Part shown: piece by piece, positions 2,335 to 59,793 of the stretch
Numbering within the stretch: position 1 is the first letter of the stretch
How the letters are laid out: each line of letters opens with the position of its first letter
Assembly (NCBI GenBank): GCA_017542245.1
Contig: JAFXXN010000016.1
Coordinates: 25,711-89,710, forward strand
From: Lachnospiraceae bacterium
Lineage (GTDB): Bacteria > Bacillota > Clostridia > Lachnospirales > Lachnospiraceae
DNA length: 64,000 nucleotides
Reading direction: 5' to 3'
Translations under genes and position numbers: made by a program
Notes under the pieces: generated by a model
Databases searched by the model: none
Told to the model about the DNA's origin: nothing
Seen by the model: only the letters and a program-made list of their open reading frames with translations

Positions 2335-3075
2335 ATGAAGAAATTTTTAGTTTTACTTTTAGCACTTGCTATGGTTGTGTCTCTTGCAGCATGCAGCAAG
2401 AAAGAAGAAAAGGACATTTTTGCTAAGTCAGAGGGTGTTATGACATATGCTCAGTATGATGCAGCAAATGTAGATGATCCTGTTACCGTAGAGACCTTCG
2501 TACAGGACAAGCAGTCATGGTGGGATAACAAAGCTACCATCTACACACAGGACAAGGATGGTGCTTACTTCATTTATGAGATGCAGTGCTCAGAGGCAGA
2601 TTACGCTAAGCTTGTTAAGGGCCAGAAGATCAGAGTAAAAGGATTTAAGGCTGATTTCCAGGGTGAAAAGGAAATAGCAGATGCAACATTTGAAATCCTT
2701 GACGGAAATTACGTAGCTCCGGCTACCGATGTCACAAGCTTACTCGGGAAAGACGAACTTGTTAAATATCAGAACAGATTCGCTGAGTTCAAGGGTATGA
2801 CAGTTGCAGCAAGCAAGGATGCCGATGGTAATGATGCAGCTTTCCTTTACAAGTGGAACGGCAGCGGTCAGGAAGGCGATGACCTCTATTTCAATGTAGA
2901 GCTTAACGGAAACGTATACACATTCACAGTTGAGTCTTATCTTTGCGGTAAGGATACTGAAGTATACAAAGCAGTAAAAGAACTTAAGATTGGTGAAAAG
3001 ATTGATCTTACAGGATACCTTTACTGGTATGATACTGTAAATCCCCATATCATTTCTGTAACAGCAGCTAAATAA
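2335..3075 (+). CDS. lipoprotein of unknown function
   Basis: I chose the internal ATG at 2335, which is preceded by AGAGGA. The N-terminus MKKFLVLLLALAMVVSLAAC is a classic lipoprotein signal. The longer ORF from 2197 has no SD and a non-signal N-terminus. Confidence 0.6.
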   Translation: MKKFLVLLLALAMVVSLAACSKKEEKDIFAKSEGVMTYAQYDAANVDDPVTVETFVQDKQSWWDNKATIYTQDKDGAYFIYEMQCSEADYAKLVKGQKIRVKGFKADFQGEKEIADATFEILDGNYVAPATDVTSLLGKDELVKYQNRFAEFKGMTVAASKDADGNDAAFLYKWNGSGQEGDDLYFNVELNGNVYTFTVESYLCGKDTEVYKAVKELKIGEKIDLTGYLYWYDTVNPHIISVTAAK

Positions 3076-22260: not shown

Positions 22261-22287
22261 TAAGTTTATCGTTTTACCTTCCGATAA
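22261..22287 (+). promoter_or_regulatory. sigma-28 (FliA/SigD)-type promoter upstream of flgM
   Basis: TAAG-15 nt-tCCGATAA, compared with the consensus TAAA-N15-GCCGATAA. Confidence 0.65.
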
Positions 22288-22362
22288 TGTAAGTGAAAGA
22301 TAAATTAAAATGAAACCGAATCGGATTATATAAAGGTTTTAAGTAATATGGAGGTGAGTATT

Positions 22363-22629
22363 ATGCGTATTGATTCTATGAACCAGGTCAGCCAGGTATA
22401 TCGTATGAATAAAACCAAAAAAGTAAATACAGCTTATCAGGCTCAGGTTGGCGACAGAGTTGAGATATCACAGCTTGGAAGAGATATTCAGATAGCAAAG
22501 AAGGCAGTAAGTGCTGCTCCCGATATCAGGGAGGATAAAGTTTCAGCCATGAAGGCAGCTTTTGCAGAAGGATATTCTGTAAGTGATAATGATATAGCAG
22601 ACAAGCTCTTAGAAAGCTTCGCTATCTGA
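22363..22629 (+). CDS. flgM: anti-sigma-28 factor FlgM
   Basis: Small protein with its start after GGAGGTG. It has a FlgM-like C-terminus (VSAMKAAFAEGYSVSDNDIADKLLESF) and sits at the head of flgN-flgK. Confidence 0.8.
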   Translation: MRIDSMNQVSQVYRMNKTKKVNTAYQAQVGDRVEISQLGRDIQIAKKAVSAAPDIREDKVSAMKAAFAEGYSVSDNDIADKLLESFAI

Positions 22630-28958: not shown

Positions 28959-29429
28959 ATGAAAGTAAAAACAAGGCACTTTGGGGAAGTTGAGATCGAT
29001 GAGAGCAAGGTTATCACCATGGATAACGGTCTGTTTGGATTTGAGAACTATAAGAAATATATTCTTCTCTATGATTCAAGCACAGATGAGATCCCAAGTA
29101 TCCAGTGGCTTCAGAGCGTAGATGAGGAACTTCTGGCACTTCCTGTTATGATTCCTACCACTATTGTTCCGGAGTATAACCCTGTAGTTGATGATGAATA
29201 TCTGGAGAACCTTGGCGAGTGGACCGAAGATACACTGTCCATACTTGTTACGGTTACCGTACCGATAGATGTTAAGAATATGTCCATCAACCTTAAAGCG
29301 CCCATCGTTATCAACACTGCAACAATGAAAGGCGGCCAGGTAGTAGCTGAGAATTCTGATTACGAAGTAAAATATAAGATTCATGATCTGCTTGAAGCTG
29401 CCAGAAAGAAGAAGGAGGAGGAAGGCTGA
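28959..29429 (+). CDS. fliW: flagellar assembly factor FliW
   Basis: The FliW signature N-terminus is [29 protein letters not shown]. It is translationally coupled to csrA. Confidence 0.9.
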
Positions 29430-29653
29430 TGCTGGCATTATCAAGGAAGACGAATGAATCAATTATGCTCGGCAATGACATAGAAATAACTGTTCTTGAA
29501 ATAAAAGGAGATCAGGTTAAGATAGGTGTAAATGCACCAAAGAGTGTGGCTATATTCAGAAAAGAAATATATGTCCAGATTCAGGAAGAGAACAAGAAAG
29601 CGGCTGAGCAGCAGGTTGACAGGGATACTATCGAAAAATTATTTAAAATTTAA
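29429..29653 (+). CDS. csrA: carbon storage regulator CsrA
   Basis: [48 protein letters not shown] is a near-canonical CsrA sequence. Confidence 0.95.
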
Positions 29654-29664
29654 TATTTTGCTAT

Positions 29665-29691
29665 TAAGTTTTTTTACAAAGTATCCGATAA
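29665..29691 (+). promoter_or_regulatory. sigma-28-type promoter upstream of flaG-fliD
   Basis: TAAG-15 nt-tCCGATAA. Confidence 0.65.
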
Positions 29692-29901
29692 AAAGAATAG
29701 AATAGAATCCCATTAGTGTATCCACAACTAAAAGGATTTGGGCAGATAATCATGCGGGATGAATATTCTGTATGATTATTTGTGTTTTAACCGGGAAGTT
29801 TAGAGCATTCTTATCATTCCGGTTTGTGTCACAAGGAGGTGTGACGGTATTTTTACCGTCGGTACAAATGGTTTCGGAATACCGAACGAAAGGAGAACGA
29901 T

Positions 29902-30312: not shown

Positions 30313-30352
30313 GGCACACGCAAGGATGCGTAAAGAACATGGAGGTTAACTT

Positions 30353-32084: not shown

Positions 32085-32112
32085 TAAAGGTTTTTCAAAC
32101 ATTATCCGATAT
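32085..32112 (+). promoter_or_regulatory. sigma-28-type promoter candidate upstream of fliS
   Basis: (T)AAAG-15 nt-tCCGATAT. The -35 element is less canonical than at the other sites. Confidence 0.5.
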
Positions 32113-33207: not shown

Positions 33208-33234
33208 TAAGTAAATCGGTTTTGCCTCCGATAT
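33208..33234 (+). promoter_or_regulatory. sigma-28-type promoter P1 of flagellin
   Basis: TAAG-15 nt-tCCGATAT. Confidence 0.6.
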
Positions 33235-33299
33235 AATAAATGTCAGGGTTAAAAAAGAAAAAATCCTGAAAAAAATTAAAAAAAATATTAGCAGGGGGT

Positions 33300-33326
33300 T
33301 AAGAAAACTTACAAACCTGCCGATAT
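33300..33326 (+). promoter_or_regulatory. sigma-28-type promoter P2 of flagellin
   Basis: TAAG-15 nt-GCCGATAT, with a perfect -10 element. Confidence 0.75.
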
Positions 33327-33441
33327 AAAAAGTGAGTAAAGCGAAAGCATTTTACTTCAAACTTACCGAAGGGTTACTTCGGTACCTTGACCGGAAGAGA
33401 GTACGGCTCGGAAAGTCAGCAACTATTAACTATTTAAAATT

Positions 33442-33475
33442 GTGGCAAGGAAGCCACTACACATTCAAGGAGGAA
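33442..33475 (+). promoter_or_regulatory. putative CsrA binding sites in the flagellin leader (hairpin GGA site plus SD site)
   Basis: GTGGC-AAGGAA-GCCAC hairpin at 33442-33457, then AAGGAGG at 33468-33474 just before the ATG at 33481. This matches the two-site architecture of the B. subtilis hag leader. Confidence 0.6.
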
Positions 33476-33480
33476 AAATT

Positions 33481-34299
33481 ATGATAGTACAACACAACAT
33501 GGCAGCCCTTAACACTAACAGACAGTTGGGCGTATCAAACACAAATTTAGCAAAGTCAACAGAGAAGTTATCAAGCGGTTACAAGATCAATCGTGCAGGC
33601 GATGATGCAGCAGGTCTTTCGATTTCAGAGAAGATGCGTGGTCAGATCCGTGGTCTTGAGCAGGGTTCAACCAATGCTCAGGATGGTATCTCCCTCATCC
33701 AGACAGCTGAAGGTGCTCTGAATGAAGTTCATTCAGTTCTTCAGAGAATGAGAGAACTTACTGTACAGGCAGCTAACGATACAAACGTTACTGCAGACCG
33801 TGACGCTATTGCATCTGAGCAGAAGGCACTTGTTGAAGAAATCGATCGTATCGGCGATCAGACAGAATTCAACACCATGAAGCTCTTAAATGGCGATTTT
33901 GAAGATAAGAAACTCCAGGTTGGAGCAAATACAGAGCAGTCAATAGCTATCTCTATCGGCGACATGACCTCCAGTGGTCTTGGCGTAGATGGTGCTGGTG
34001 ATGAGATGGGCGATTATGATGCAGCTACAGCTTTCATTGAGACAGTTGATGCAGCTATCACATCTGTTTCTACTCAGAGATCTGATCTTGGTGCTATCCA
34101 GAACAGACTTGAGCACACAATCGCTAACGCTGATAATACTGCAGAGAACTTACAGTCAGCTGAAAGCCGTATTCGTGATGTTGATATGGCTGAAGAGATG
34201 GTTAAGTACTCAAAGAGCAGCATTCTTCAGCAGGCTGGTCAGTCTATGCTGGCTCAGGCAAATCAGCAGACCCAGGGTGTTCTGTCACTCCTCAGATAA
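33481..34299 (+). CDS. fliC: flagellin (short, 272 aa)
   Basis: MIVQHNMAALNTNRQLG...LSSGYKINRAGDDAAGLSISEKMR at the N-terminus and ILQQAGQSMLAQANQQTQGVLSLLR at the C-terminus. The start was chosen after AAGGAGG. Confidence 0.95.
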   Translation: MIVQHNMAALNTNRQLGVSNTNLAKSTEKLSSGYKINRAGDDAAGLSISEKMRGQIRGLEQGSTNAQDGISLIQTAEGALNEVHSVLQRMRELTVQAANDTNVTADRDAIASEQKALVEEIDRIGDQTEFNTMKLLNGDFEDKKLQVGANTEQSIAISIGDMTSSGLGVDGAGDEMGDYDAATAFIETVDAAITSVSTQRSDLGAIQNRLEHTIANADNTAENLQSAESRIRDVDMAEEMVKYSKSSILQQAGQSMLAQANQQTQGVLSLLR

Positions 34300-34340
34300 T
34301 GCTAAATCTAAAAAATGTACTTACTATCGTAAGCGTGGAA

Positions 34341-34369
34341 ATATGCAGCCGAATGGCTGCATATTTTTA
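34341..34369 (+). terminator. Rho-independent terminator of flagellin
   Basis: ATATGCAGCC-GAAT-GGCTGCATAT followed by TTTTTATTTT. Confidence 0.85.
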
Positions 34370-34374
34370 TTTTG

Positions 34375-34429: not shown

Positions 34430-36670
34430 ATGAATCATAACATAGATTATTTCAGGGATGAAGTAAGAAACGGCTTCTATGTTCCAACAGTCGTAAAGCA
34501 GGCTTGGGCCATGTGCCTTGATATACTTTCGGAGATAGACAGAATATGTCAAAAATACGGTATTACCTACTATGCCGATTGGGGAACCTTTTTGGGTGCA
34601 GTACGCCATGGAGGCTTTGTCCCGTGGGATGACGACATGGATATCTGCATGAAAAGAGAAGATTACATAAAGTTTAGAGAAGTGTGTGATAAAGAACTTC
34701 CTGCACATTTTGATATCCATGATTATGAAAGAAAAGAAGATCACTGGCTATTTCTGTCAAGAGTCGTTAATAATAAAAAGATATGTTATGATGAAGAATA
34801 CCTGGAAGAACATTACAATTTCCCGTGGCTTGCAGCGGTAGACATCTTTGTAAAAGACTATTTATATATAGATCCGGAGAAAGAGAAAGCACGTGATAAA
34901 GACGTGTTGTTTCTAGTTACCATTGCAGATGGTATACGAGAAAAGAGTTTTAAGGAGAATGTTGCCAGGTTTAATCTAAAAGAAATTGAAAACAAATATC
35001 ATGTGAAACTGCCGGATATTTCAAAGGAACGGGAGCTTTGTATAGCGTTATATAAGTTAGCCGAAAAGCGAATGGCAGAGGTAAAGGAAAATGAATCAGA
35101 GGAAATAGGCCAGATTTATCCCTGGATACTACGAGGGGATAAAGGCCAGCCCAAGAACTATTATGAGGATGCGGTACGGCTTCCTTTTGAAGATATCACC
35201 ATTCCGGTTCCTGCCAGATATAACGAATTCCTTACACACCGATATGGAAATTTCTGTGAGATACATAAAATATGGTGGGCTCATACATATCCTTTCTTTG
35301 AGTCACAGAAGAAAGAGATGGAGAGAGTAAACGGAGCTCCAATCATAGACTTTGCTTTTGATAAAAGTATGTTGGATCGACCGGCAAAAGAAAATGGAGC
35401 ATCACTGAAGGTTATAACAAAAGAATGCTTGACAGAACTTAAAAGATTAGTTGGTGAATGTAAAGAATTACTAACGAAAGAAGATGAATATATAAACCTG
35501 CTTACTGAGATGCAGCAGCTTGCAGTAGACCTTGGAACTTTGATAGAACAGGTAAAAGGCGAAACAAAAGAGCCAGCTCAAAAGGCAGTCTCATCTTTAG
35601 AAAAACTGTGTGAGGCAATATTTTTAGGAAGCAGCTCTAAGGATGTAGCAGGAATAGAAGAAGCATTAAAAGAAGCAGAAGAAATAATAGAACACTATAT
35701 TATAGGAAGAAAAGAGATTTTATTCTTATCTATTGGTCCTGAAGAATGGAGAGGACTGGCACCTGTATATGAAGAATGTATAAAGGATGAAGACGTGGAT
35801 GTATATATAGTTCCGTTACCTATACTTCCTAAGGATCCTTTAGGACAGGTAAAGATGAGTACCGAGGATATAGAAAAAGCAGTTCATCTCGGAGATTATC
35901 CTGAAAATATAAACTATACTTCATGGAAAGAATATGATATAGCACAGCACTGCCCGGAAAAAATATATATACAGAATTCGTATGATGAGAGAAACGCATA
36001 TCTTACTGTTCCACCTCAGTATTATGCGAAAAATATAAGAAGATACACGGATGAGCTGATATTTATTCCCTTCTCGCCCACATCCGAATTTGAGGAAAAG
36101 GATGCTACGGATATGTACGCCTTAAAGCACTATGCGGTATCTCCCGGTGTCATTTATTCAGATAAGGCAATAGTCCAATCCGAAAATATTAAGAAACATT
36201 ATGTAAATAAGCTTACGGAATTTGCGGGAGAGGATACTAGAACAGTTTGGGAGCAGAAGATAACTACAGAAGGATTCCCTGCAGCTAAGAATACTTCAGA
36301 AAAGGGTACTATCCTTTGTATAGGAGTAAACGAGTTAGTGGAAAAAGGGGAAGAGCTTCTTGATACGATAAAGGATTATATTAAGAAAATAAAGACCGAA
36401 AATGAAGGTGAAAATATAACGTTTACTTTCTATCCTGATGACAGATCTCAGTGGGATATTTTGAACAAGGATCTGGCAGAACGTGTATTTAAACTTATAG
36501 AAGAAGAGGCTATAAAAGAAGGATACGGTAAGCTAACTCTTATTCCGAAGAAAGCAGATGCGGTAGCGTCAGAATACGCATCCTATTATGGAAGTGCCTC
36601 GCCTTTAGTTCCTGCCTTTACAATCAAAGGAAAGCAGGTAAGGCTGTTTACAGGAGTAACATTTAATTAA
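34430..36670 (+). CDS. LicD-family (phosphotransferase) domain fused to a roughly 450-aa C-terminal domain of unknown function; candidate flagellin-modification enzyme
   Basis: The N-terminal third carries the LicD signature YYADWGTFLGAVRHGGFVPWDDDMDICM. I do not recognise the remainder. It lies immediately downstream of flagellin. Confidence 0.7.
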   Translation: MNHNIDYFRDEVRNGFYVPTVVKQAWAMCLDILSEIDRICQKYGITYYADWGTFLGAVRHGGFVPWDDDMDICMKREDYIKFREVCDKELPAHFDIHDYERKEDHWLFLSRVVNNKKICYDEEYLEEHYNFPWLAAVDIFVKDYLYIDPEKEKARDKDVLFLVTIADGIREKSFKENVARFNLKEIENKYHVKLPDISKERELCIALYKLAEKRMAEVKENESEEIGQIYPWILRGDKGQPKNYYEDAVRLPFEDITIPVPARYNEFLTHRYGNFCEIHKIWWAHTYPFFESQKKEMERVNGAPIIDFAFDKSMLDRPAKENGASLKVITKECLTELKRLVGECKELLTKEDEYINLLTEMQQLAVDLGTLIEQVKGETKEPAQKAVSSLEKLCEAIFLGSSSKDVAGIEEALKEAEEIIEHYIIGRKEILFLSIGPEEWRGLAPVYEECIKDEDVDVYIVPLPILPKDPLGQVKMSTEDIEKAVHLGDYPENINYTSWKEYDIAQHCPEKIYIQNSYDERNAYLTVPPQYYAKNIRRYTDELIFIPFSPTSEFEEKDATDMYALKHYAVSPGVIYSDKAIVQSENIKKHYVNKLTEFAGEDTRTVWEQKITTEGFPAAKNTSEKGTILCIGVNELVEKGEELLDTIKDYIKKIKTENEGENITFTFYPDDRSQWDILNKDLAERVFKLIEEEAIKEGYGKLTLIPKKADAVASEYASYYGSASPLVPAFTIKGKQVRLFTGVTFN

Positions 36671-36848
36671 TTTTGGTTGACTGATTTTTGGTAGTTAAAA
36701 AGATAGTAGTAAAATGCAACTGTAAATTCAACATACATTTATTAATATAGCATTATTTGTATACACAATTAACACAATTAATGTGAAGAAATCCGAAAAA
36801 AAGCTTGACAATAGCGAAAAAATATTGTAAAATACTTACACTGAATTT

Positions 36849-36874
36849 GAAGTGCCTCTCACAGCACTTCTTTT
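36849..36874 (+). terminator. hairpin with T-run (possible terminator of the LicD gene or attenuator)
   Basis: GAAGTGC-CTCTCACA-GCACTTC followed by TTTT. Confidence 0.4.
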
Positions 36875-36963
36875 CATCTAATGTCGCAGCTGTTTCTGCT
36901 TCATATTTCTTGAATGTGCCGTACTCACAGGAAAAAAATATGAAAAAGTTATAGATGCGGTAT

Positions 36964-36990
36964 TAAGTTTTCTTTCAACAGAGCCGATAT
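36964..36990 (+). promoter_or_regulatory. sigma-28-type promoter upstream of the secreted-protein expression site
   Basis: TAAG-15 nt-GCCGATAT, the same architecture as flagellin P2. It lies 264 nt upstream of the ATG at 37254. Confidence 0.6.
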
Positions 36991-37244
36991 ATGTATTGTA
37001 ACGAGTATAATAAAAATACTCGGGACATTCATGGTGACTGTTGAATGTGAGACGCTTTACTCGCAAGAAAACGTAAATGAGATTGAGATACGTGCTTATT
37101 CTCACTCGAATGGATTCGCACACAGTCCGCTGTATGAATCTTAGTTGACTGGAACCGTACACCAGACAGATAAGAAGATTACAAATCTCAATGTCGTGTG
37201 TTCAAGGATGGACACAGGCAGGATAACCCACATACACAAGGAGG

Positions 37245-37309
37245 TAAAAATTTATGAAGCATTTTAAACTTATGAAGGGCGTGCTTGCATGCCTTTTATC
37301 ACTGGCACT
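37245..37309. repeat. IR-L: 65-bp arm of a perfect inverted repeat (pre-ATG spacer, ATG and 56 nt of signal-peptide coding)
   Basis: It is the exact reverse complement of 42487-42551, which I verified base by base. Identity drops sharply on both sides. Confidence 0.95.
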
Positions 37310-39248
37310 GGTGATTTCATGTTTTGGATATGCCGGAGTAAAGGCAGATGATCCTGAACCTACTACACCAGAAACCACAACAGAAGCTGAAAAGTTTGAT
37401 ATTACGGTAACTGCACCTGATTGCGTTAAACTTACAGGTACAGATGGTAAAGATTTAGGATTAACCGGTATTGCAAAAGATACCGATGTTTCATTTAAAG
37501 TAGTTATCAGTGAAGCTACAAAGCAGCTTAAAAGCGTAAAAGCTGGAGATACAGAATTAGAGGCTGCACAAGGCGTTTACACTGTAAAGGTTTCAGCTGC
37601 TGTTACTATTACAGTTGAAGTTGAAGACGTTCCTGTGACAGCAGAATATATTGCTGCTACAGATACTGTTAAGTTTACTTCTAGCGTTGCTGGAAAGGTT
37701 TTATATGCAACAGTAAAGAAAGCTGGAGCTAAAGTTACTAAAACTAGCGAAGTTGAACTTAAGGCAGATGAGAATGATGCTACTAAATTTGTTGCTGAAA
37801 TAGTTCTTAACAACAAAGATGGTGGAGTTAAAGTAGCAGAAGATAAAGATCTGTATCTTTGGTATGGATTTTCAGCTCCTGATAAGAAAGCTACCGTAAA
37901 ACCTCTCCTTACAGTTGATGGAACAAAAGTTAAGAAACTTAATGTGGTTCTTAATTATGCCGTTGCTGGTACTGATAAGTGTGCTATAGCAAGTGCAACT
38001 GCAAAGATAGGCAAGGCAGAATCAGTTGTTGATCTTGCAACACTTCAGTATCGTTATTTCGATGGAAATGCTTGGGGTGAATGGACAGATGTAGTTAAAG
38101 CTACGGCTACAACTACAGAGCCCACCACAACTACTGAGACTCCTGAAGAAGTTACCGGTAATGGAACTGACGATGGAGAAGCTACTACCGATGGTGAAGG
38201 TGAGACAACAGCAACTGTAGAGTATAATTTCACCGGTAAAGTACTTGAAACCGCAGTTAACGCAGCAGCAGAAGGAAAGCCCGCTTTTGAAATCAAAGTT
38301 AAAGCTTCCGCAGCTGTTGAAGCTGTAGAAGCTTCTGAAGGCGTAGAAGCTGTTGAAGGTAAGAACGCAGTTCGTGGTTCTAAGGCAGCAAAGATTACTG
38401 TTAAGAAAGCCGGAGAACTTAAGGCAGTTAAAGTCGACTACGTTAAGGGAACAATCGCTATTAAGAACGGTTTTGATTATGCAGTTATGACAGAGGCTGG
38501 TAAAACTCCCACAGCTGAGGATTGGAATACAGTTCTTCCTTTCAAGAAGGGTGGCACAGCTACTGCAGATATAAAGACTGTAGATTATGTTCCGGCTAAG
38601 AAGGTTAGTACTGATACTGCAGCTATGTTCGCTAAGGAGAAAGTTTCTAGCAAGAACATCAGCGACCTTTTAGGCGAGAATGATACAATTTATGTATATG
38701 TAAGGAAGTCTGCAACAACTAAGGCTCCTGCATCTAAAGCATGTGAAGTAATTACTATCAAGAAGCCTGCAGCAGCTCCTGCATTCACAACTCAGAGTAT
38801 CGAAGGAACTAAGGGTAAGAAGGGTTGGAGTTATGTTCTTACAGCTCCCGAAGCTCTTACAGGTGGAGATTATGAATATCTGATCGTTAAGGCAGATGCT
38901 GATCTTACCAAGATATCAGGCGCTAAGTGGTCTAAGCTTAATGCAAAAGGAATTAAGTTAGGTAGCAAGTCTAAGATTGATAAGTCTACTACTTATACAC
39001 TTGCAGCAGACGGAAATTACTGGATTCTTATCAGAAAAGCAGCTGTTAAGAAGGGCGATAACGCAGCTTTAGCTTCTGAGTATGTTAAGACTTTAGTTGG
39101 AAAACCTGTAGATGGCGGAACAACTGAGGCTCCTACTTCTACTATCTCTTGGAGTGTAGTTACAGAAGAGGCTCCTGCAGAAGAAACACCTACAGAAACA
39201 CCTACTGAAGGTACTGATCCTGCAACTGAAGGAACTGACAATCCTTAA
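37254..39248 (+). CDS. secreted protein A (664 aa), expressed-site copy of a paralogous pair
   Basis: Consensus SD AAGGAGG and signal peptide MKHFKLMKGVLACLLSLALVISCFGYAGVKA. It has Thr/Pro/Glu-rich linkers. The C-terminal module is shared with 39825-42542 and 57163-59793. Confidence 0.85.
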   Translation: MKHFKLMKGVLACLLSLALVISCFGYAGVKADDPEPTTPETTTEAEKFDITVTAPDCVKLTGTDGKDLGLTGIAKDTDVSFKVVISEATKQLKSVKAGDTELEAAQGVYTVKVSAAVTITVEVEDVPVTAEYIAATDTVKFTSSVAGKVLYATVKKAGAKVTKTSEVELKADENDATKFVAEIVLNNKDGGVKVAEDKDLYLWYGFSAPDKKATVKPLLTVDGTKVKKLNVVLNYAVAGTDKCAIASATAKIGKAESVVDLATLQYRYFDGNAWGEWTDVVKATATTTEPTTTTETPEEVTGNGTDDGEATTDGEGETTATVEYNFTGKVLETAVNAAAEGKPAFEIKVKASAAVEAVEASEGVEAVEGKNAVRGSKAAKITVKKAGELKAVKVDYVKGTIAIKNGFDYAVMTEAGKTPTAEDWNTVLPFKKGGTATADIKTVDYVPAKKVSTDTAAMFAKEKVSSKNISDLLGENDTIYVYVRKSATTKAPASKACEVITIKKPAAAPAFTTQSIEGTKGKKGWSYVLTAPEALTGGDYEYLIVKADADLTKISGAKWSKLNAKGIKLGSKSKIDKSTTYTLAADGNYWILIRKAAVKKGDNAALASEYVKTLVGKPVDGGTTEAPTSTISWSVVTEEAPAEETPTETPTEGTDPATEGTDNP

Positions 39249-39322: not shown

Positions 39323-39433
39323 AGCCAGTGATATGAAATGATTCATGGCCCCTAGAGGAGAAATCCTTTAGGGGTTTCTTTTTGCTCTAATCTATGGAGC
39401 ATTTAATAAAAAAAGTTGCCTTTCCGGCAACCC
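39323..39433 (+). repeat. terminator module copy 1 (T1 hairpin 39349-39374 with T-run; T2 hairpin 39415-39431)
   Basis: T1 is CCCCTAGAGGA-GAAA-TCCTTTAGGGG followed by TTTCTTTTT. T2 is GTTGCC-TTTCC-GGCAAC flanked by A/T runs. The module is repeated at 43873-43980, and T1 alone is inverted at 39711-39770. Confidence 0.85.
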
Positions 39434-39454
39434 TGCGATATTTCCATATTCAAT

Positions 39455-39710: not shown

Positions 39711-39770
39711 TAGAAAAACCCCTAAAGGATTTCTCCTCTAGGGGTCATGAATCATTTCATATCACTGGCT
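39711..39770 (-). repeat. terminator module T1, inverted copy 2 (terminator of secreted protein B)
   Basis: It is the reverse complement of 39323-39380 with a 1-nt difference. The hairpin is at 39719-39744, with a T-run on the minus strand. Confidence 0.85.
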
Positions 39771-39824
39771 TTGTATTACTTAATTGCCTTTATGATTTTT
39801 AATTCATTATCCAATGTTACCAGA

Positions 39825-42542
39825 TTATGAATTAATTTCCCATGCATAACCGTCAACTTGCTCTTTATCAACAGTTATCTTAACAGCTGTAACCTTTGTT
39901 ACAAGTACTTCTGAAGGAAGAACGCCCTTCTTCTTGTCGCCTGCACGTCTGATAAGAATGAGGCAATCTGTTCCAAGAGTAGCGTCTTTACTTTCTGTTC
40001 CAACAACGTACTTTGACTTGGTCTTATCAACTGTAAGAGTCTTACCTGCTACAAGCTTGCCCCACTTAGAAGCTGCATAGTCAACCTTACCTAAGTCTTC
40101 TGCCTTGATGATAAGATATTCATAACTAGCAGTATTCTTATCGGTTGCATCATTGCTGATAGTAGGTATTGTGAATGCAGTTCCTTTGTCAGATTTAACT
40201 GCTTCTGCATACTTGCCTTCAGCATCCTTAAGGGATTTAAGTGCAGGAGCTGCAGTAGCCTTGTCAATCTTAACTGCAGTTGAAGCTGCTGATGCAGGCT
40301 TACCATCTGCTGCTGACTTTCTTACAAATACATAGATGCTATTAGGAACGTTTTCTGATGTTCCTTTAGCTGCAGTAAAGAGATCTGCAATGCTTATGGA
40401 TTTAATCTTCTTGCTTGTAAAGTAAGCTGCTGATGTCTCTGCAAACTTCTTTGTAGGAACAAAGTCAGAAGTTGCAATTGTATATGTTTCATTCTTGCTT
40501 TCCTTATTGAAAGGAAGGATTGTTATCCAGTCACTAGGTTCAGGAGTCGCACCTTCTTCAGTAAGAACTGCATAATCATATCCGTTCTTAATAGCGATGG
40601 TTCCCTTAACACCGTCTACCTTAACCTTGGGAGCCTTAGCTGCTTTCTTAACACTAGCCTTAGCTGCCTTTGTGTTACGATAAGCTACTTCTGTATCTGT
40701 AGCAGAAGCACCTGTAAGTCTGAACTGAATCTTAGGAGCTTTCTTTTCAAGTGTCCAGCCATAAAGCTTTTCACCAGTAAGTTTTCCGTTATCCTTTACT
40801 TCTGTAAGAGTTATTGTTCCAGCAGCAGTAATATTTTCACCGCTCTTAAGCTTAACCTCTGCACCAGAAACCAGATTGTACTTAACCTGTGTTTTAGTTA
40901 TGGTGATAGTTTTGCCTGCAGCCGCAGTACCTTTTGTTAAAGTGATTTCATCAGGCATAACAGTAGTTGTCATGTTATCACCATTCATTAAATACCAACC
41001 TGCATCACGATGTGCTGTTGTAACTTCACCAGTTGTTTCATCTTTTACTTCCGCTACTTCGTCAGAATACTTATATACTACATTCTCACTATCAGAAGAA
41101 TAATCAGCTGCGATTGTCACTTCACCATTATCAACCGTGGTTGCACCCGAATAAGTGTACTCTGCCGGGCTAGGTGTATAAGTCCACTTGTTATCAGCAA
41201 AGGTATATGCACCTGCTGCTAACTTACTGATATCTTTAATAGTAACTGACTCTACAACTTCAGCTGCAGTATCATCGAGTGCATAGTTATAACCAACTAA
41301 TACTTCCTGATCAGCGGAACCGTTAACCTTAAGCCATGTTTTACCATTGTCAACGCTATACTGAAGCGAACCAGTAATTGTAGCCCATTCTTCAGAATCA
41401 GTTGTATAAGTCTTAGCTTCTCCAGATGCAGGAGTAACAACAACGCTTGCTATAGCTAAAACGTTAACGCCTTTATCAGCCTTAGCATAATTGAAGTTAA
41501 CTGCTAATTTCTTATAAGAGGTAGCCTTAACAGTTACATTTGCATCAAAGGTCTGTCCTTTTTCAGGTTTAACAGCACCTACAAGAACACAAAGGTATGT
41601 ATCCTTGTTTTCTGCAACACTAACACCAGCCTTCTTATTATTAAGAGCGATAGTAGCCATCTTGTCATCACCGGTCTTAACATTAGCAAATTTGCTAACC
41701 TTATTACCTGAAGCTGCTTTAACCAATGCATAACTGATAGTTACATCTTTAACTGCTGTTTCGATTACAACTGAATCTTTTGAAGGATCATAAGTGATAC
41801 CTTCGATAGCAGCTGTAGCTACGTTATTTCCAATCGCAACATCTTCACTCTTATATTCAGCAGTATAATCCTGTTCAAACTTATATTCAGCAGAATTAAC
41901 ATCAACATTGTTAATCTTTGTAAGAACTACATTCTCAGCTGCAAGTGATTTTGCATTCTCGCCTTCGCCATTAACAGCTGCAGCGATGATTTCAGCTGCT
42001 GTAAATGAAACCTTCTTTGTAGTAACATTAAGATTATCTACAGGGAATTTAGCAGTATATTCTACTGTGGGATTTCCATAATTAATAGTAAATACATAAT
42101 TGATTTTCTTAGGAACAGCGGTAATAGCTATTGCAACATCTGCTATAGTTACACCATCATCTGTCTCTGCCTGTTTTTTGATTGTAAACTCATTGGTTGT
42201 AGTATTATAAGCAATAGCTGCATCATCTGCTCCAATAGCTGCAGAGCCCTTTTTTACGTCTGTAACTATTATTCCATCAGCATAATTATCATCTATTGAC
42301 TTATTAGCTGCTTTTGCGTTTTTTGTTATATCCGCTAAAGAAACCTTTACATCTGCTGTTGCATCTTGGTTTTTAGCAACTTCATAAGTATAAGCTACAG
42401 AATTAATAGTTACCGTAAAAGTTGTCTTTGCGGTTCCCTTATCAGTAGCAGCTTTTGCTCCGATATTACCAAAACACGTTACAACGAGTGCCAGTGATAA
42501 AAGGCATGCAAGCACGCCCTTCATAAGTTTAAAATGCTTCAT
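39825..42542 (-). CDS. secreted protein B (905 aa), promoter-less/SD-less paralog of protein A
   Basis: Its first 19 codons are identical to protein A. AGAAAGT stands in place of an SD. Blocks homologous to protein A include VKGTIAIKNGYDYAV, IYVFVRKSAADGKPAS and YEYLIIKA. Confidence 0.85.
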   Translation of the reverse strand: MKHFKLMKGVLACLLSLALVVTCFGNIGAKAATDKGTAKTTFTVTINSVAYTYEVAKNQDATADVKVSLADITKNAKAANKSIDDNYADGIIVTDVKKGSAAIGADDAAIAYNTTTNEFTIKKQAETDDGVTIADVAIAITAVPKKINYVFTINYGNPTVEYTAKFPVDNLNVTTKKVSFTAAEIIAAAVNGEGENAKSLAAENVVLTKINNVDVNSAEYKFEQDYTAEYKSEDVAIGNNVATAAIEGITYDPSKDSVVIETAVKDVTISYALVKAASGNKVSKFANVKTGDDKMATIALNNKKAGVSVAENKDTYLCVLVGAVKPEKGQTFDANVTVKATSYKKLAVNFNYAKADKGVNVLAIASVVVTPASGEAKTYTTDSEEWATITGSLQYSVDNGKTWLKVNGSADQEVLVGYNYALDDTAAEVVESVTIKDISKLAAGAYTFADNKWTYTPSPAEYTYSGATTVDNGEVTIAADYSSDSENVVYKYSDEVAEVKDETTGEVTTAHRDAGWYLMNGDNMTTTVMPDEITLTKGTAAAGKTITITKTQVKYNLVSGAEVKLKSGENITAAGTITLTEVKDNGKLTGEKLYGWTLEKKAPKIQFRLTGASATDTEVAYRNTKAAKASVKKAAKAPKVKVDGVKGTIAIKNGYDYAVLTEEGATPEPSDWITILPFNKESKNETYTIATSDFVPTKKFAETSAAYFTSKKIKSISIADLFTAAKGTSENVPNSIYVFVRKSAADGKPASAASTAVKIDKATAAPALKSLKDAEGKYAEAVKSDKGTAFTIPTISNDATDKNTASYEYLIIKAEDLGKVDYAASKWGKLVAGKTLTVDKTKSKYVVGTESKDATLGTDCLILIRRAGDKKKGVLPSEVLVTKVTAVKITVDKEQVDGYAWEINS

Positions 42543-42551
42543 AAATTTTTA
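42487..42551. repeat. IR-R: 65-bp arm of the perfect inverted repeat
   Basis: It is the exact reverse complement of 37245-37309. Confidence 0.95.
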
Positions 42552-42627
42552 ACTTTCTACAATCTGATATATAATTGTGGTATAAGTATATAAAAATTTT
42601 CAATACAAAAGAAAGGAATTGAGAAGC

Positions 42628-43620
42628 ATGAAAAAATCAGATGAAAGAGAAGTGAAAAGATTGAAGTTTAAGGATCAGGTGGATTTTTTTCTAGAGGACA
42701 AGAAATGCTTTTTGGCTGATGGTACGATTCTGAACTATCAACGTGACCTGAATAGAGCATGCGCGGTATTTGGAGATATATTTATAGATGATATTTCATA
42801 TCTGGAAATAAAAAAGTATTTTGTCGATCTTCAGAATAATGGAATTAACATGTACACAGGAAAAAGACTTAAATCGGGAACGATCATGCAGCACTATATC
42901 ACGCTTCATTCATTCTTTGAGAATGCTGTAGAAAATGGTATTCTTACTGAAAATCCAATGAGAAGGTTGAAAAGACCGAAAAGCAGGAAAGACGAAGAGT
43001 TAAAACCTGTCATTTCATATGATGAAAAACAGGTACATTATATTTTATCATGTTTGAATCTGGAGCCCTTAAAATGGAAAGCTTTGATAATGGTGGCTAT
43101 TGATAGTGGATGTAGATGTGGAGAACTGATGGGACTTAAATGGACAGATATTGATTTTGAGTCCGGAAGGATGAACATTGTAAGAAATATTCAATATACA
43201 CCTGAAAAAGGAATATTTGTATGTACGCCAAAGAATGGAAAAAGTAGGGAAATATATCTGAACGGACCGGTGATAGCGATTCTTAAAGAATGGAAGAAAA
43301 TCAGCAATATAGGTAAAACAGAAAAGTCTAACGAGTACTGTTTTACCGGGAGAAATAATCAGCCTATGATGCCTGGGTGCTTTAACGCTTTTCTTCGCCG
43401 TTTTGGAAAGAAGTATAATCTTAAAGGAATACATCCCCATGCCCTTAGGCATAGTATGGCTTCGATAAGCCTTGTTCATGGGGCAGATATTGTCAGCGTT
43501 TCGAAAAAGCTTGGGCACTCCAATGTTTCCATAACATTAAATGTTTACAGCCATACAAACTTTGAGGCACAGCTTAGGGCTAATGAAGTTTTTGCGGGGG
43601 CTGTATATAATAAAGAGTGA
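42628..43620 (+). CDS. tyrosine site-specific recombinase (XerC/D-integrase family), candidate invertase
   Basis: Catalytic signature GCRCGEL (Arg), HPHALRHS (HxxR) and LGHSNVSITLNVYSH (His..Tyr). An SAM-like N-domain is present. The ATG at 42628 follows GAAAGGA; an alternative TTG lies at 42619. Confidence 0.9.
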   Translation: MKKSDEREVKRLKFKDQVDFFLEDKKCFLADGTILNYQRDLNRACAVFGDIFIDDISYLEIKKYFVDLQNNGINMYTGKRLKSGTIMQHYITLHSFFENAVENGILTENPMRRLKRPKSRKDEELKPVISYDEKQVHYILSCLNLEPLKWKALIMVAIDSGCRCGELMGLKWTDIDFESGRMNIVRNIQYTPEKGIFVCTPKNGKSREIYLNGPVIAILKEWKKISNIGKTEKSNEYCFTGRNNQPMMPGCFNAFLRRFGKKYNLKGIHPHALRHSMASISLVHGADIVSVSKKLGHSNVSITLNVYSHTNFEAQLRANEVFAGAVYNKE

Positions 43621-43723: not shown

Positions 43724-43872
43724 ATTGCTTCTTTATAAAAATTACTTAACATTAACCAATGAAGCTCATGATCAAACTTATGTCGCTTGGTAAGAATGAT
43801 GATGTAATCAAGGTTTCCAGTGATGTTGATTATAGGGAAAAAATGTATACGATGTACGGTATTAAATAAAAA

Positions 43873-43980
43873 CCAGTGCTATGAAATGATTCATGGCCCC
43901 TGGAGGAGAAATCCTTTAGGGGTTGCTTTTTGCTCTAATCTATGGAGCATTTAATAAAAAAAGGTTGCCTTCCGGCAACC
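43873..43980 (+). repeat. terminator module copy 3 (T1 43897-43922; T2 43963-43980)
   Basis: It is a direct repeat of 39323-39433 with a few substitutions. T2 read on the minus strand terminates the ATPase gene. Confidence 0.85.
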
Positions 43981-44038
43981 TTGAAAAATTATCATATTTC
44001 TCTGATAGTCAGAAACTAATGACTTCATTTCTCCATAG

Positions 44039-57078: not shown

Positions 57079-57105
57079 TAAGATTATACCATAAAAGACC
57101 GATAT
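57079..57105 (+). promoter_or_regulatory. sigma-28-type promoter upstream of the 876-aa secreted protein
   Basis: TAAG-15 nt-aCCGATAT, 58 nt upstream of the ATG at 57163. Confidence 0.55.
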
Positions 57106-57162: not shown

Positions 57163-59793
57163 ATGAGGAAAAGAATAATTAGTATGGTATTAGCTGCTAC
57201 TATGATTTTTAGCATATTTTCTGTCAGCTTGCCTTCAGTTGTTTCTGAAGCCAAGAATACTGTTTATCAGGATAATGAGCTTTTGTACTGGAGAATAGAC
57301 AGTGGCGGAGAAGAGCAGTCAATCAAGATTAAAACATCAAATATTCCCATAAACTTTACATATACTAAAGCTTTGGAAGATACTATCCCTTATGATGGCG
57401 ATAAGAGTTACTATGTGGATGAGAATCCGGGAAGCAAGAAGAGCTATGGAGATACTTTATATAATGCCGGTGTTTTGGAAAAAACAGGAAGCGGAGAGAA
57501 TGAGGTATTATTCCATAGAAACGCGCTTGATCCTAACAACATGTTAAAATTTTCTAATTGGGCAAAAAGAAAGCTGCATTATTTTGGATCCTCTACTCCC
57601 CAGCAGTTTATTCCCGAGTCGGATTATTATGGCAAGCCGGTTTATGTTTATGATGCAGATGCGAAAAAAGGCATAGATGGACTGCCTAATATCTTAACAG
57701 AAACAGGAATGCTGGACTATAAAGTAAAGTATAACGGAAATGCGATTCTTATTCCCAAGCAGCCGATCACTTATTATACAGATGTTCAGGGTGATCTGGT
57801 AGAAGTTACTTCTGACAGTGACATTAAGCTTCAATATGCGGTAGAAAAGTCATCGGTGCGTGCATCGCAGATTAAGTGGATATTAGGAACTAATACCACT
57901 ACTGTCAGACTTGAAGCCGAATATACATATACCAGGCTTGTACCTATGACATCAGGTGAATACAAGGAGATAATATTTAAGGGTGAATATGTAGCAACTA
58001 ACGGAGAATCACAATACGGAACATATGGCCGTACAGTTTCCCAGGATAATGATACCAGTATCCCTGTTTATTCGGGCGGAGAGCTGGCTTCATATAAAAA
58101 CTTTGGATCATATAAAACAAATGCATATGATTTCATTTCCGGCAAGAATATTCAGATTATCTCAAACTGCCCTGTAGTTTCCGTTAAAGAAACCGTCAAG
58201 TATTATATGGATGTTGAATGCTATATCATTGATACAGATATGGTGAAGGACGACGGGAAGGATAAGAATGTATATATAAAAGACTTCCTGATGGACAACA
58301 TTTCAGTTGAAGAATATCGTTTTGTAAAAAATCAGAGTACATTTTCTGTTAAATATGATTATGCAACAGGATTTACGGTAAAAGGTGTCAGCAGGAATAC
58401 GGATCTTGTTTGGCTGAATGGTACTCACGTATCGGAAGCGGCTACGGGATTTTCCGGGGAGCTTATTGAGTGGTGGGCCGGACAGTCTTCAGATCATCAT
58501 TATTCAACCCCGGATAACCTGAATAAAGATATCCATATTGAAAGGTATCTTGATTATGGCGTAACGATGCATTTTATTGATGTTAACCGGCCCGTAAAGG
58601 TAGTTACCATAAAGATACCGGCGCGCAAAAAAGCTCCTGAATTAAAATTCAAAGATGTAGACGGTGTCACCACGATTTTTGGATTTAAGCCAAAAACAAC
58701 TGCAATCCGTATGTCAGATACAAATGGAAAATATATTACTTTCCCGGCAAAATTAACAAGCGGAGCCAGTGCTGTACTCGGAACTCCGTATCTGATGGCA
58801 GGAGATTCAGATAAGAGTAAATACGGAGATCAGAGCTTCTATGTATATAACGGAGGTGAAGGAGGAAAAGGAAAGTATATTAGCGTACTAGACCTTTTCG
58901 GATTGACAGATAACCAAAACTTTAATACAGTCAGAGGAGCATATATAGAGGCACAGAATATTGCAGTTAAGAAAATGGCACCTTCGAGAATATCTGCTCT
59001 GTATATCAATCCTCAGGAAGTATTTAATACCGGAAGATCAAATTCTCAGGAGTCTATAATTCTTGAATCGGGCTATATTACCATATCTGATGCAGATAAG
59101 AGTAATGCATATGAGTATGGCATTCCCGGGGACGGAGGAATTGTAAAGAGATGGTATGCTATAAAGTCTCCAAAGAGGACTAAAGTAAAGGGACTTAATG
59201 ACGGCACAACTATTTATATACGTAAAAAGGCCATCACAACTAATGACAAGTCACTTTTCCTTCCTTCAACATATATCGCTTTGACATATGATGGTAAGGG
59301 AGTCGGAGTTCCTAATGCATACTACATGGATGATTATTATGTAAAAGGCAATGTGACTGTTAGTTTGGTAAATGATACAAAGTCAGATATCAAAATAAGC
59401 GGCACTACAATGAAAAATGATGAAGTAATGCCTTTGCAGACTAATGATGTTGTTTACAGAAATTATATCTACAAGAACAGGCTGGCTCAGGGACTTAGTG
59501 GGAAATCCGTAATAACAGTGCAAGCCGGAAACAAAGAGATAAAATTAAACGGGATAGATGATTGCCGGATTTCTCTCAGTGCTCTTCTTTTAAGATTAAA
59601 ATCAGAGTATGGAAACGAGTGGACGACTGCATACGAGAAGTATGGAATTACTTCTATTTCTGTAAGCATTGTAGGATATGACAGTAGCTTGATCACAAAG
59701 GCTGATGACCAGGTATTCAAAAAAGTATATAAGGTTGGAGAAACAGAGTATGAATATCACCCGGTTCATTTGCTCAGATATATGATGCAGTAA
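57163..59793 (+). CDS. large secreted protein (876 aa) sharing the C-terminal module of secreted proteins A/B
   Basis: Signal peptide MRKRIISMVLAATMIFSIFSVSLPSVVSEA. An ordered motif set is shared with A/B: KAPELKFKDVDGVTTI, ISVLDLFG, AVKKMAPS, YEYGI, RW and IYIRKKA...LPS. Confidence 0.8.
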   Translation: MRKRIISMVLAATMIFSIFSVSLPSVVSEAKNTVYQDNELLYWRIDSGGEEQSIKIKTSNIPINFTYTKALEDTIPYDGDKSYYVDENPGSKKSYGDTLYNAGVLEKTGSGENEVLFHRNALDPNNMLKFSNWAKRKLHYFGSSTPQQFIPESDYYGKPVYVYDADAKKGIDGLPNILTETGMLDYKVKYNGNAILIPKQPITYYTDVQGDLVEVTSDSDIKLQYAVEKSSVRASQIKWILGTNTTTVRLEAEYTYTRLVPMTSGEYKEIIFKGEYVATNGESQYGTYGRTVSQDNDTSIPVYSGGELASYKNFGSYKTNAYDFISGKNIQIISNCPVVSVKETVKYYMDVECYIIDTDMVKDDGKDKNVYIKDFLMDNISVEEYRFVKNQSTFSVKYDYATGFTVKGVSRNTDLVWLNGTHVSEAATGFSGELIEWWAGQSSDHHYSTPDNLNKDIHIERYLDYGVTMHFIDVNRPVKVVTIKIPARKKAPELKFKDVDGVTTIFGFKPKTTAIRMSDTNGKYITFPAKLTSGASAVLGTPYLMAGDSDKSKYGDQSFYVYNGGEGGKGKYISVLDLFGLTDNQNFNTVRGAYIEAQNIAVKKMAPSRISALYINPQEVFNTGRSNSQESIILESGYITISDADKSNAYEYGIPGDGGIVKRWYAIKSPKRTKVKGLNDGTTIYIRKKAITTNDKSLFLPSTYIALTYDGKGVGVPNAYYMDDYYVKGNVTVSLVNDTKSDIKISGTTMKNDEVMPLQTNDVVYRNYIYKNRLAQGLSGKSVITVQAGNKEIKLNGIDDCRISLSALLLRLKSEYGNEWTTAYEKYGITSISVSIVGYDSSLITKADDQVFKKVYKVGETEYEYHPVHLLRYMMQ

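Follow-up and report, generated by a model that had tools for sequence, protein, structure and literature searches.

In the vsa/HvsR system of Mycoplasma pulmonis and at sapA of Campylobacter fetus, a single promoter and a constant 5′ region are joined by inversion to silent coding bodies. These sites use housekeeping promoters, the one in C. fetus lying on the invertible segment, the inversion of which is RecA-dependent, and we know of none that has been tied to a flagellar sigma factor or to CsrA. The FliW-CsrA checkpoint, for its part, has to our knowledge been established mainly for flagellin. Here, we describe a locus in which these kinds of control may meet. It lies in a 64-kb stretch of DNA (hereafter, the window) from a metagenome-assembled genome (MAG) of an uncultured Lachnospiraceae bacterium with 39% G+C, in which a gene for a secreted protein of 664 amino acids (aa; 37254-39248; features are on the forward strand unless noted otherwise) is preceded by a promoter of the flagellar sigma-28 (FliA/SigD) type and a leader of ~257 nt. 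Region 36963-37253 probably acts as a constant control module in an expression site whose products are highly variable surface proteins, secreted via Sec and composed of immunoglobulin (Ig)/fibronectin type III (FN3)-like domains.

Both non-flagellar sigma-28 genes and inversion-based expression sites are already known. In Bacillus subtilis, the SigD regulon includes the autolysins LytC, LytD and LytF and the protease Epr (PMC5200910), and two further reports place tcdR and cbpA of Clostridioides difficile under SigD (PMC3865298) and describe determinants co-expressed with flagella in Campylobacter jejuni (PMC5223770). CwpV (CD0514) and the flgB flagellar switch of C. difficile are inverted by the tyrosine recombinase RecV, and the expression of CD0514 fell in a sigD mutant (PMC3865298, PMC2784873). 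At the level of translation, CsrA of B. subtilis represses hag through one upstream site and one site over the Shine-Dalgarno sequence (PMC7652899). Finally, some of the Lachnospiraceae flagellin genes are equipped with tandem sigma-28 and housekeeping promoters (PMC3720852).

The promoter described here (36963-36990) consists of a -35 element, TTAAG (36963-36967), a 15-nt spacer and a -10 element, GCCGATAT (36983-36990), so that positions 36964-36990 read TAAG TTTTCTTTCAACAGA GCCGATAT. It agrees almost perfectly with the consensus published for sigma-D, TAAA(-35)-N15-GCCGATAT(-10) (PMC5200910), and transcription is predicted to start near 36997-36999. An earlier note on this DNA had pointed to TAAG-N15-GCCGATAT at 36964-36990, had ascribed the same architecture to flagellin promoter P2 and to the promoters of flgM, flaG and fliS, and had placed the motif 264 nt upstream of the ATG. 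The motif is indeed present at these positions, the same motif is found before all four of the flagellar genes, and its upstream location holds, the distance from the end of the -10 element to the ATG at 37254 being 263 nt on recount.

Sigma-28-type motifs are strongly enriched in the window. Searches with the regular expression TAA[AG]-N14-16-NCCGATA[TA] returned seven matches, compared to a mean of 0.56 in 1000 dinucleotide-preserving shuffles of the window (maximum 6; 0/1000 reached seven). All seven matches are on the forward strand, in intergenic DNA and 5′ of a gene. Five of these precede flagellar genes, namely, flgM (22261-22287), flaG (29665-29691), fliS (32085-32112) and flagellin, which has two (P1, 33208-33234, and P2, 33300-33326); the other two are located upstream of the 664-aa gene (36964-36990) and of an open reading frame (ORF) with a signal peptide (57079-57105). 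The TAAG variant of the -35 element, instead of TAAA, is the local norm, occurring at six of the seven sites. A slightly different motif, TAAA-N16-17-MCGATAa, has been used for Lachnospiraceae, in which sigma-28 motifs lie 47-375 bp from the flagellin start codons (PMC3720852). When the motif was relaxed, the matches across the 272 kb examined were found 5′ of flagellar genes, of members of the 664-aa protein family and of two other ORFs with signal peptides, in addition to three TCGATA-type sites without a recognisable gene.

Further evidence comes from comparison of related loci (designated by L numbers), which were gathered by exact-protein look-ups, a profile-based genome scan and a metagenome scan with a 3′-leader anchor, CCGTACACC...GGATGGNCNCNNGCAGGATA, that excludes the promoter. 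The protein family is rare, comprising 27 clusters, and the genome matches are confined to MAGs of rumen Lachnospiraceae or Clostridia. The sequence TTAAG-N15-G[CT]CGATAT recurs in the same place, 217-265 nt 5′ of the ATG, in 19 of the 19 anchor-bearing loci with at least 200 nt of upstream DNA, and the only anchor loci that miss it are those cut by contig ends. L030 and L031, which were found via their proteins and have a diverged anchor, carry the motif as well, bringing the tally to 21 of the 21 loci with enough upstream DNA. The leaders form three clades, with the window, L003 and L018 in clade 1, L005, L008, L020-22, L027 and L031 in clade 2, and L011, L013, L017, L023, L024 and L030 in clade 3. 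All 14 distinct versions of the promoter have the same -35 element and CGATAT core, whereas the 15-nt spacer is mostly unconserved; the -10 variant characteristic of clade 3, GTCGATAT, is also the -10 element of the flagellin P2 promoter in L003. Furthermore, a distant paralogue encoded directly downstream of the family gene in L005 (5427-6347) has a different signal peptide and a 48-nt unrelated leader, preceded by a predicted promoter of its own, TAAG-N15-GTCGATAT (5352-5378), and is an independent association of the family with the sigma-28 motif. The invariance of the -35 and -10 elements across three leader clades with a variable spacer, along with the synteny with flagellin described below, supports, at the level of sequence, the assignment of the secreted-protein locus to the late flagellar (FliA/SigD) regulon, as suggested in the earlier note. 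We consider the promoter at 36963-36990 very likely to be functional, and from its observed elements and their conservation we infer dependence on sigma-28 and the position of the transcription start.

The signal-peptide ORF associated with the seventh motif is a case apart. Here, TTAAG-N15-ACCGATAT (57079-57105) is found 57 nt before an 876-aa ORF (57163-59793) that has no match in Pfam or NCBIfam and that comparison showed to be unrelated both to the family of the 664-aa and 905-aa proteins (the latter encoded by a silent paralogue discussed below) and to the gene downstream in L005.

The leader comprises a 5′ hairpin, a set of central blocks and a 3′ module with three GGA motifs that are proposed CsrA sites. 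The first of these sites is in a 3′ hairpin (37197-37216), recovered by folding and by RNAalifold, in which UGUGUUCA (37197-37204) pairs with UGGACACA (37209-37216) over 8 bp, closing an AGGA loop (37205-37208; GGA at 37206-37208); folding lengthens this stem by 4-6 further pairs in each clade. The second site is GCAGGAUA (37218-37225; GGA at 37221-37223), located at the 3′ foot of the hairpin and invariant in 14 of the 14 sequences of both alignments introduced below. The third one (37238-37256) coincides with the Shine-Dalgarno sequence AAGGAGG (37238-37244; GGA at 37240-37242) and the ATG (37254-37256); it is absent in the silent copies. Thus, the leader ends with the hairpin, GCAGGAUA and the Shine-Dalgarno sequence CAAGGAGG, in this order, and the (A/C)GGA loop, GCAGGAUA and CACAAGGAGGU are all invariant in the 14 distinct leaders. 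The earlier note had recorded a weak hairpin presenting AAGGA and two GGA sites; a hairpin of this kind does occupy the place, although with its 8 bp it is hardly weak, and both sites are retained in what is now a set of three. The segment GUUCAAGGAUGG matches the CsrA consensus RUACARGGAUGU obtained by SELEX (PMC7652899) at 10 of the 12 positions.

Covariation in the 3′ hairpin was assessed on two alignments, one of 14 distinct leaders (A3) and the other of 14 sequences including L030-L033, which are missing from the former (A4). The first test, on A3, detected no changes on both sides of a pair, and support was obtained only after the addition of L030, L031, L032 and L033. On A4, 89% of the cells are paired, compared to 27-48% when the 3′ partners are slid, and three of the eight pairs change on both sides, for instance, from U-A to U-G to C-G (L003, L033) and from G-C to A-U (L030). 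The resulting covariation score is 0.209 versus 0.169 in shuffles, with 2/500 shuffles reaching the observed value. Because every compensatory change is found in one sequence only, we regard this support as modest.

The flagellin gene of the same window provides an internal reference for the proposed regulation, its promoters and leader spanning 33208-33484. The 3′ end of the leader of the 664-aa gene, ...CACAUACACAAGGAGGUAAAAAUUUAUG, closely resembles that of the flagellin leader, ...CUACACAUUCAAGGAGGAAAAAUUAUG, bearing out a likeness already perceived in the earlier note. The flagellin leader contains the hairpin GUGGC[AAGGAA]GCCAC 10 nt before its Shine-Dalgarno sequence CAAGGAGG, and this hairpin is kept in L003 and L008. 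All components of the hag-type layout, that is, a GGA in a hairpin loop, a GGA over the Shine-Dalgarno sequence and both csrA and fliW in the window, are present. The CsrA control envisaged in the earlier note is, accordingly, a reading that the invariant GGA loop, the second GGA, the Shine-Dalgarno GGA, the compensatory changes in the hairpin and the presence of fliW and csrA would support. Hairpins with a GGA loop and a stem of at least 5 bp within 45 nt 5′ of the Shine-Dalgarno sequence are found at 7 of the 42 Shine-Dalgarno-led starts, including those of flagellin, fliD, flaG and the 664-aa gene. The fliD hairpin, ACGCA[AGGA]UGCGU (30318-30331), is located 10 nt before the respective Shine-Dalgarno sequence, and that of flaG is at ~29826-29845; therefore, the CsrA regulon of this lineage may extend beyond flagellin.

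The hairpin and the GGA motifs could also have nothing to do with CsrA, contributing instead to mRNA stability or processing or binding another RNA-binding protein, in which case the likeness to flagellin would stem from a shared strong ribosome-binding context. Such an interpretation is encouraged by the stem of 8-12 bp, which is stabler than that of typical CsrA ligands, most of the SELEX hairpins having at most 4 contiguous pairs (reviewed in PMC7652899); by the UCA that takes the place of the SELEX-invariant ACA in GUUCAAGGAUGG; by the abundance of GGA-loop hairpins, 233 of which with a stem of at least 5 bp are found on the two strands of the window; by the covariation, which amounts to three single-sequence changes among close relatives; and by the trivial fact that the Shine-Dalgarno sequence AAGGAGG contains GGA regardless. 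Nevertheless, we find it unlikely, given that the (A/C)GGA loop and the unpaired GCAGGAUA remain invariant while stem positions change, and that flagellin and fliD carry the same arrangement of a hairpin followed by the Shine-Dalgarno sequence in a genome with fliW and csrA. In addition, the GGA spacings of 15, 19 and 34 nt fall within the range tolerated by a CsrA dimer. On balance, we lean towards the view that CsrA controls translation of the 664-aa gene.

Conservation extends into the DNA upstream of the sigma-28 motif. The alignments reveal a near-invariant 39-nt block, GAATGTGCCGTACTCACAGGAAAAAAATATGAAAAAGTT (36912-36950), just 5′ of the -35 element, which is almost unchanged in clades 1 and 2; in clade 3, the GC-containing half of the block is absent, and the A-tracts AAAAAAAGA are kept at the same distance. 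A-tracts thus precede the -35 element in all clades and may act as an UP element, presumably akin to that of B. subtilis hag. The possibility that the block marks the start of a conserved mini-ORF was discarded: the length of this ORF differs in every clade, and it is not conserved because its ATG is replaced by ATT in L027. The 9-mer GCCGTACTC from the block is present in two copies in the window, the other one being its reverse complement in the flagellin leader (33399-33407), where it is kept in L003 and L008; CCGTAC, also from the block, recurs in the leader of the 664-aa gene at 37155. RNA-RNA pairing with the flagellin leader was not significant compared to shuffles, either for the upstream region (p = 0.21) or for the leader (p = 0.06), and a binding site for a protein shared by the upstream block and the flagellin leader is therefore possible.

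Farther upstream, ~130 nt 5′ of the sigma-28 motif, there are two elements that the earlier note missed, a sigma-70-like promoter, TTGACA-17-TAAAAT (36805-36833), which matches the consensus at 11 of 12 positions, and, between the two promoters, a terminator-like hairpin, GAAGUGC...GCACUUC, followed by UUUUC (36849-36870). The hexamers of the sigma-70-like promoter are kept in clades 1 and 2 with a variable spacer (L003, L005, L031), and L030 has TTGACA-17-TATAAT in the same relative place. An equivalent hairpin with a U run is found in L005, L031 and L030, where it differs in sequence but preserves the order of promoter, hairpin with U run and sigma-28 motif; it is absent in L003. One could, therefore, regard the sigma-70-like promoter, with its good match to the consensus and its conservation, as the main driver of the 664-aa gene and the sigma-28 motif as secondary or idle, as with genes that have a housekeeping and a flagellar promoter in tandem, such as the Butyrivibrio fibrisolvens flagellin gene, for which a sigma-28 as well as a sigma-43 promoter has been reported (PMC3720852). 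This is, however, rather improbable: in the window, L005, L031 and L030, the terminator-like hairpin and U run intervene ~15-40 nt after the sigma-70-like promoter and 5′ of the sigma-28 motif; in L013 of clade 3, three tandem copies of an unrelated ~50-nt repeat, GGTAAAATATCATATATTGTGATATGAACCGAAGCGCGCTCT, replace the region of the sigma-70-like promoter (2925-3075), whereas the sigma-28 motif is retained; and conservation of the sigma-28 elements is no less strict than that of the sigma-70-like ones. The hairpin at 36849-36870 is the sole terminator-like hairpin between licD and the 664-aa gene, located 5′ of the sigma-28 promoter, and could end both LicD read-through and the sigma-70 transcripts, or serve as a 5′ stem-loop; jointly, the sigma-70-like promoter and the hairpin could produce a tiny RNA, terminate transcription conditionally or provide another regulatory input.

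Within the leader, the 5′-proximal hairpin, CGAGUAU/AUACUCG (37002-37022), which folding places a few nucleotides after the predicted start, may be an mRNA-stabilising stem-loop. Three of its seven pairs change on both sides among the window, L003 and L018, and in this clade 1 the hairpin is significant compared to shuffles; in clades 2 and 3, the place is taken by another hairpin, which is not significant in this comparison. The central part of the leader (37023-37196) displays, in the 14-sequence alignment, the conserved blocks GACUG, AUGUGA, GCUUUAC, GAGA, CCGUACACC and UCUCA. A 37-aa ORF in the L001 leader (corresponding to 37031-37144 of the window) was considered and rejected, as its ATG is missing in L003 and this part of the leader is absent from clade 3. 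If the central blocks formed an aptamer, the leader would be an undescribed ligand-sensing riboswitch or attenuator, which would accommodate its length, the conserved blocks over ~170 nt left unexplained by the other models, and the somewhat better folding of the window leader compared to shuffles (z = -2.3). We deem this improbable. RNAalifold analysis of the 14 distinct leaders identified no covariation-supported structure in the centre, with almost no conserved central pairing and a covariation term of -1.2 kcal/mol, and lent support to essentially nothing but the 3′ hairpin and some weak pairs; clade 3 lacks ~40 nt of the leader centre; and no terminator or helix sequestering the Shine-Dalgarno sequence was found in the leader. 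The comparison with known riboswitches proposed in the earlier note was likewise negative: Rfam 15 gave no match at gathering thresholds across the window and none credible at E ≤ 10 in 36650-37300, where the only hits were to eukaryotic snoRNA and miRNA models with E ≥ 0.65. As for the promoter motif being a chance match conserved only through a recently shared intergenic region, it is true that many of the loci are close relatives, with leaders 92-100% identical within clades, but the divergence of the spacer and flanks around fixed -35 and -10 elements between clades, the enrichment in the window, unmatched in any of the shuffles, and the separate motif of the distant L005 paralogue, with its short unrelated leader, make this highly improbable.

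The interpretation of 36963-37253 as the constant module of an expression site draws further on the architecture of the adjoining DNA. A repeat search identified an inverted repeat with 104-nt arms that are 88% complementary; this repeat defines the expression site and agrees with the invertible locus of the earlier note. The left arm (37242-37345) starts slightly 5′ of the ATG and takes in the signal peptide of the 664-aa protein, whereas the right arm (42451-42554, reverse strand) forms the 5′ end of a silent paralogue encoding 905 aa (39825-42542, reverse strand), the two ORFs sharing an almost identical signal peptide. The silent paralogue has no Shine-Dalgarno sequence, leader or sigma-28 motif, and its homology to the expressed copy ends ~12 nt before the ATG; more generally, leaderless copies keep the N-terminus and the bases AAAATTTATG, and nothing further upstream. 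The left arm is the proposed crossover region, which would leave the promoter, the leader and the Shine-Dalgarno sequence outside it. Next to the silent end, a Xer-like tyrosine recombinase is encoded (42619-43620; Pfam PF00589, 2e-33; NCBIfam Xer/invertase models match only below cut-offs), which is the candidate invertase. Tyrosine recombinases also adjoin silent copies in L007, L009 and L016, and the clade 3 contig carrying L016 and L017 repeats the layout of the window, with convergent expressed and silent copies and the recombinase at the silent end.

Comparison between contigs is consistent with exchange of coding bodies behind a shared leader, in that mature proteins with only 33-56% identity follow leaders with 98-100% identity. 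For instance, L003 and L033 have identical leaders (100%) and proteins with 54% identity; the corresponding values are 99% and 37% for L003/L019, 99% and 37% for L022/L027, and 100% and 46% for L023/L024. We consider it quite probable that allele exchange occurs at this site. The earlier note had described a phase-variable locus; the invertible layout, with its inverted repeat and adjacent recombinase, is upheld, whereas ON/OFF phase variation is not, as the exchange of two alleles would amount to antigenic variation.

Several additional features of this segment deserve mention. A module of 55-126 nt with a strong terminator hairpin (GGCCCCTAGAGGAGAAATCCTTTAGGGGTT) is found at 39323-39450, 39716-39772 and 43869-43998. 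It is present between the paralogues, in both orientations, and once more 3′ of the recombinase gene, and may insulate the invertible segment. A second inverted repeat (38427-38550/40502-40625; 124 nt, 76% complementary) is located in the conserved C-terminal domain of the paralogues; recombination at this internal repeat could give rise to chimeric proteins. Finally, the silent copy on the metagenome contig L002 (5728-3053, reverse strand) has a 14-residue deletion in the signal peptide, and the inverted repeat is only 57 nt long, with 98% identity; this could be a scar left by recombination or an error of assembly.

The 664-aa protein has a Sec-type signal peptide followed by tandem Ig/FN3-like beta-sandwich domains. 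The AlphaFold model, with a mean predicted local distance difference test (pLDDT) score of 79.9, is a string of such domains, and Foldseek searches against the PDB retrieved only generic Ig/FN3 ectodomains and adhesins with low template modelling (TM)-scores. Neither the 664-aa nor the 905-aa protein had a match in Pfam, NCBIfam or a sequence-profile search of the PDB.

The gene neighbourhood, in which identities were assigned by Pfam, is a late flagellar locus typical of Lachnospiraceae, comprising, in this order, flgM, flgN, two flgK copies, flgL, fliW, csrA, flaG, fliD, fliS, a FlgN-like gene, flagellin and a LicD-family gene. The latter is followed by a 583-nt intergenic region, the 664-aa ORF, the convergent 905-aa ORF and the tyrosine recombinase gene. 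The anti-sigma-28 factor is encoded by flgM (22348-22629; Pfam FlgM, 4e-16), which has its own sigma-28-type motif, as noted above. The adjacent fliW (28959-29429; Pfam FliW, 4e-36) and csrA (29429-29653; Pfam CsrA, 5.5e-26) genes, together spanning 28959-29653, encode the proposed trans-acting partner-switch pair for the leader of the 664-aa gene. Flagellin starts with the ATG at 33482 and has a strong terminator of its own (34335-34370), and licD is preceded by its own sigma-70-like promoter. The association with flagellin is not peculiar to the window: the leader-bearing gene is located directly 3′ of flagellin or of flagellin-glycosylation genes (LicD, NeuB, cytidylyltransferase, MptE-like) in the window, L003, L005, L008, L011, L013 and L017, that is, in at least seven distinct loci.

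These observations can be assembled into a model in which we infer the transcription start, sigma-28 dependence, CsrA binding, relief by FliW and inversion. The sigma-28-type promoter, with the A-tracts before it, would start transcription near 36997, placing the gene in the late flagellar class that is released upon export of FlgM. A CsrA dimer spanning the GGA sites would obstruct the ribosome, in the same way as on B. subtilis hag, and FliW, freed by flagellin secretion, would lift this block, such that the protein would be made only in cells assembling filaments. If the adjacent tyrosine recombinase inverted the segment, one coding body would be exchanged for the other, with the promoter, leader and Shine-Dalgarno sequence staying in place; since the coding body is swapped behind a fixed control region, the installed allele would inherit the flagellar control. 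More tentatively, translational gating by the FliW-CsrA checkpoint may extend to a surface protein that is exported by Sec, switches alleles and is encoded where a flagellin-glycosylation island ends, so that a motile cell would display one antigenically distinct protein, possibly an adhesin or a modifier of phage attachment, only while exporting flagellin; such a circuit would combine sigma-28, CsrA/FliW and inversion.

Apart from the properties of the 3′ hairpin discussed above, several points count against this model. The conserved sigma-70-like promoter at 36805-36833 could also drive the 664-aa gene, and the ~170 nt of the conserved central leader have no role under the combined CsrA/sigma-28 scheme. 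Of the sigma factor and its antagonist, flgM is inside the 64-kb window and fliA/sigD outside it; in Lachnospiraceae, fliA is found at the end of a separate flgB-fliA locus (PMC3720852). Lastly, the second orientation was detected in none of the window, L001, L002 and L029, and the exact 905-aa protein was encountered only in the silent arrangement.

If the model is correct, the locus would be a clear example from nature of an mRNA, other than that of flagellin, that answers to the late flagellar sigma factor as well as to the flagellin-type CsrA/FliW checkpoint, with the control module kept fixed while the controlled protein is exchanged. In fibre degraders of the rumen that are abundant but uncultured, motility would further be connected with variation of surface antigens and, possibly, with adhesion or evasion of phages. 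The locus also defines a new protein family without known homologues and a compact promoter-leader cassette, 36963-37253. The combination of a conserved sigma-28 promoter and a flagellin-type CsrA module on the constant leader of a variable Sec-exported family was not found in limited literature searches.

Each of the components has, nonetheless, a recognisable counterpart. As in vsa/HvsR and sapA, the silent bodies share a 5′ coding repeat and lack expression signals. B. subtilis hag has in common with the locus described here a TAAA/TAAG-N15-GCCGATAT-type promoter with A-rich DNA upstream, a GGA in a hairpin loop, a GGA over the Shine-Dalgarno sequence and fliW and csrA nearby; by contrast, the product here is a multi-domain surface protein with a Sec signal peptide rather than flagellin, the leader, at ~257 nt, is much longer, the GGA sites number three, the stem is longer, and CsrA binding is predicted. 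The layout flgM...csrA...flaG...fliC, with two flgK copies, is shared with Butyrivibrio fibrisolvens, Roseburia and Eubacterium rectale, for which the reports deal with flagellin genes only (PMC3720852). The non-flagellar members of sigma-28/SigD regulons are likewise secreted or surface proteins that function outside the flagellum under the late sigma factor, whereas the locus in the window adds a putative allele-switching expression site, a flagellin-like CsrA module and a protein family without known homologues. CwpV of C. difficile provides a parallel within Clostridia, being a surface protein varied through site-specific inversion by a tyrosine recombinase; there, however, a short leader switch inverts between ON and OFF, as opposed to the proposed exchange of whole coding bodies behind a fixed leader, and whereas cwpV is not listed with a SigD consensus in the excerpts considered of Table 3 of the C. 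difficile SigD-regulon study (PMC3865298), the sigma-28 motif at the locus described here is direct and conserved.

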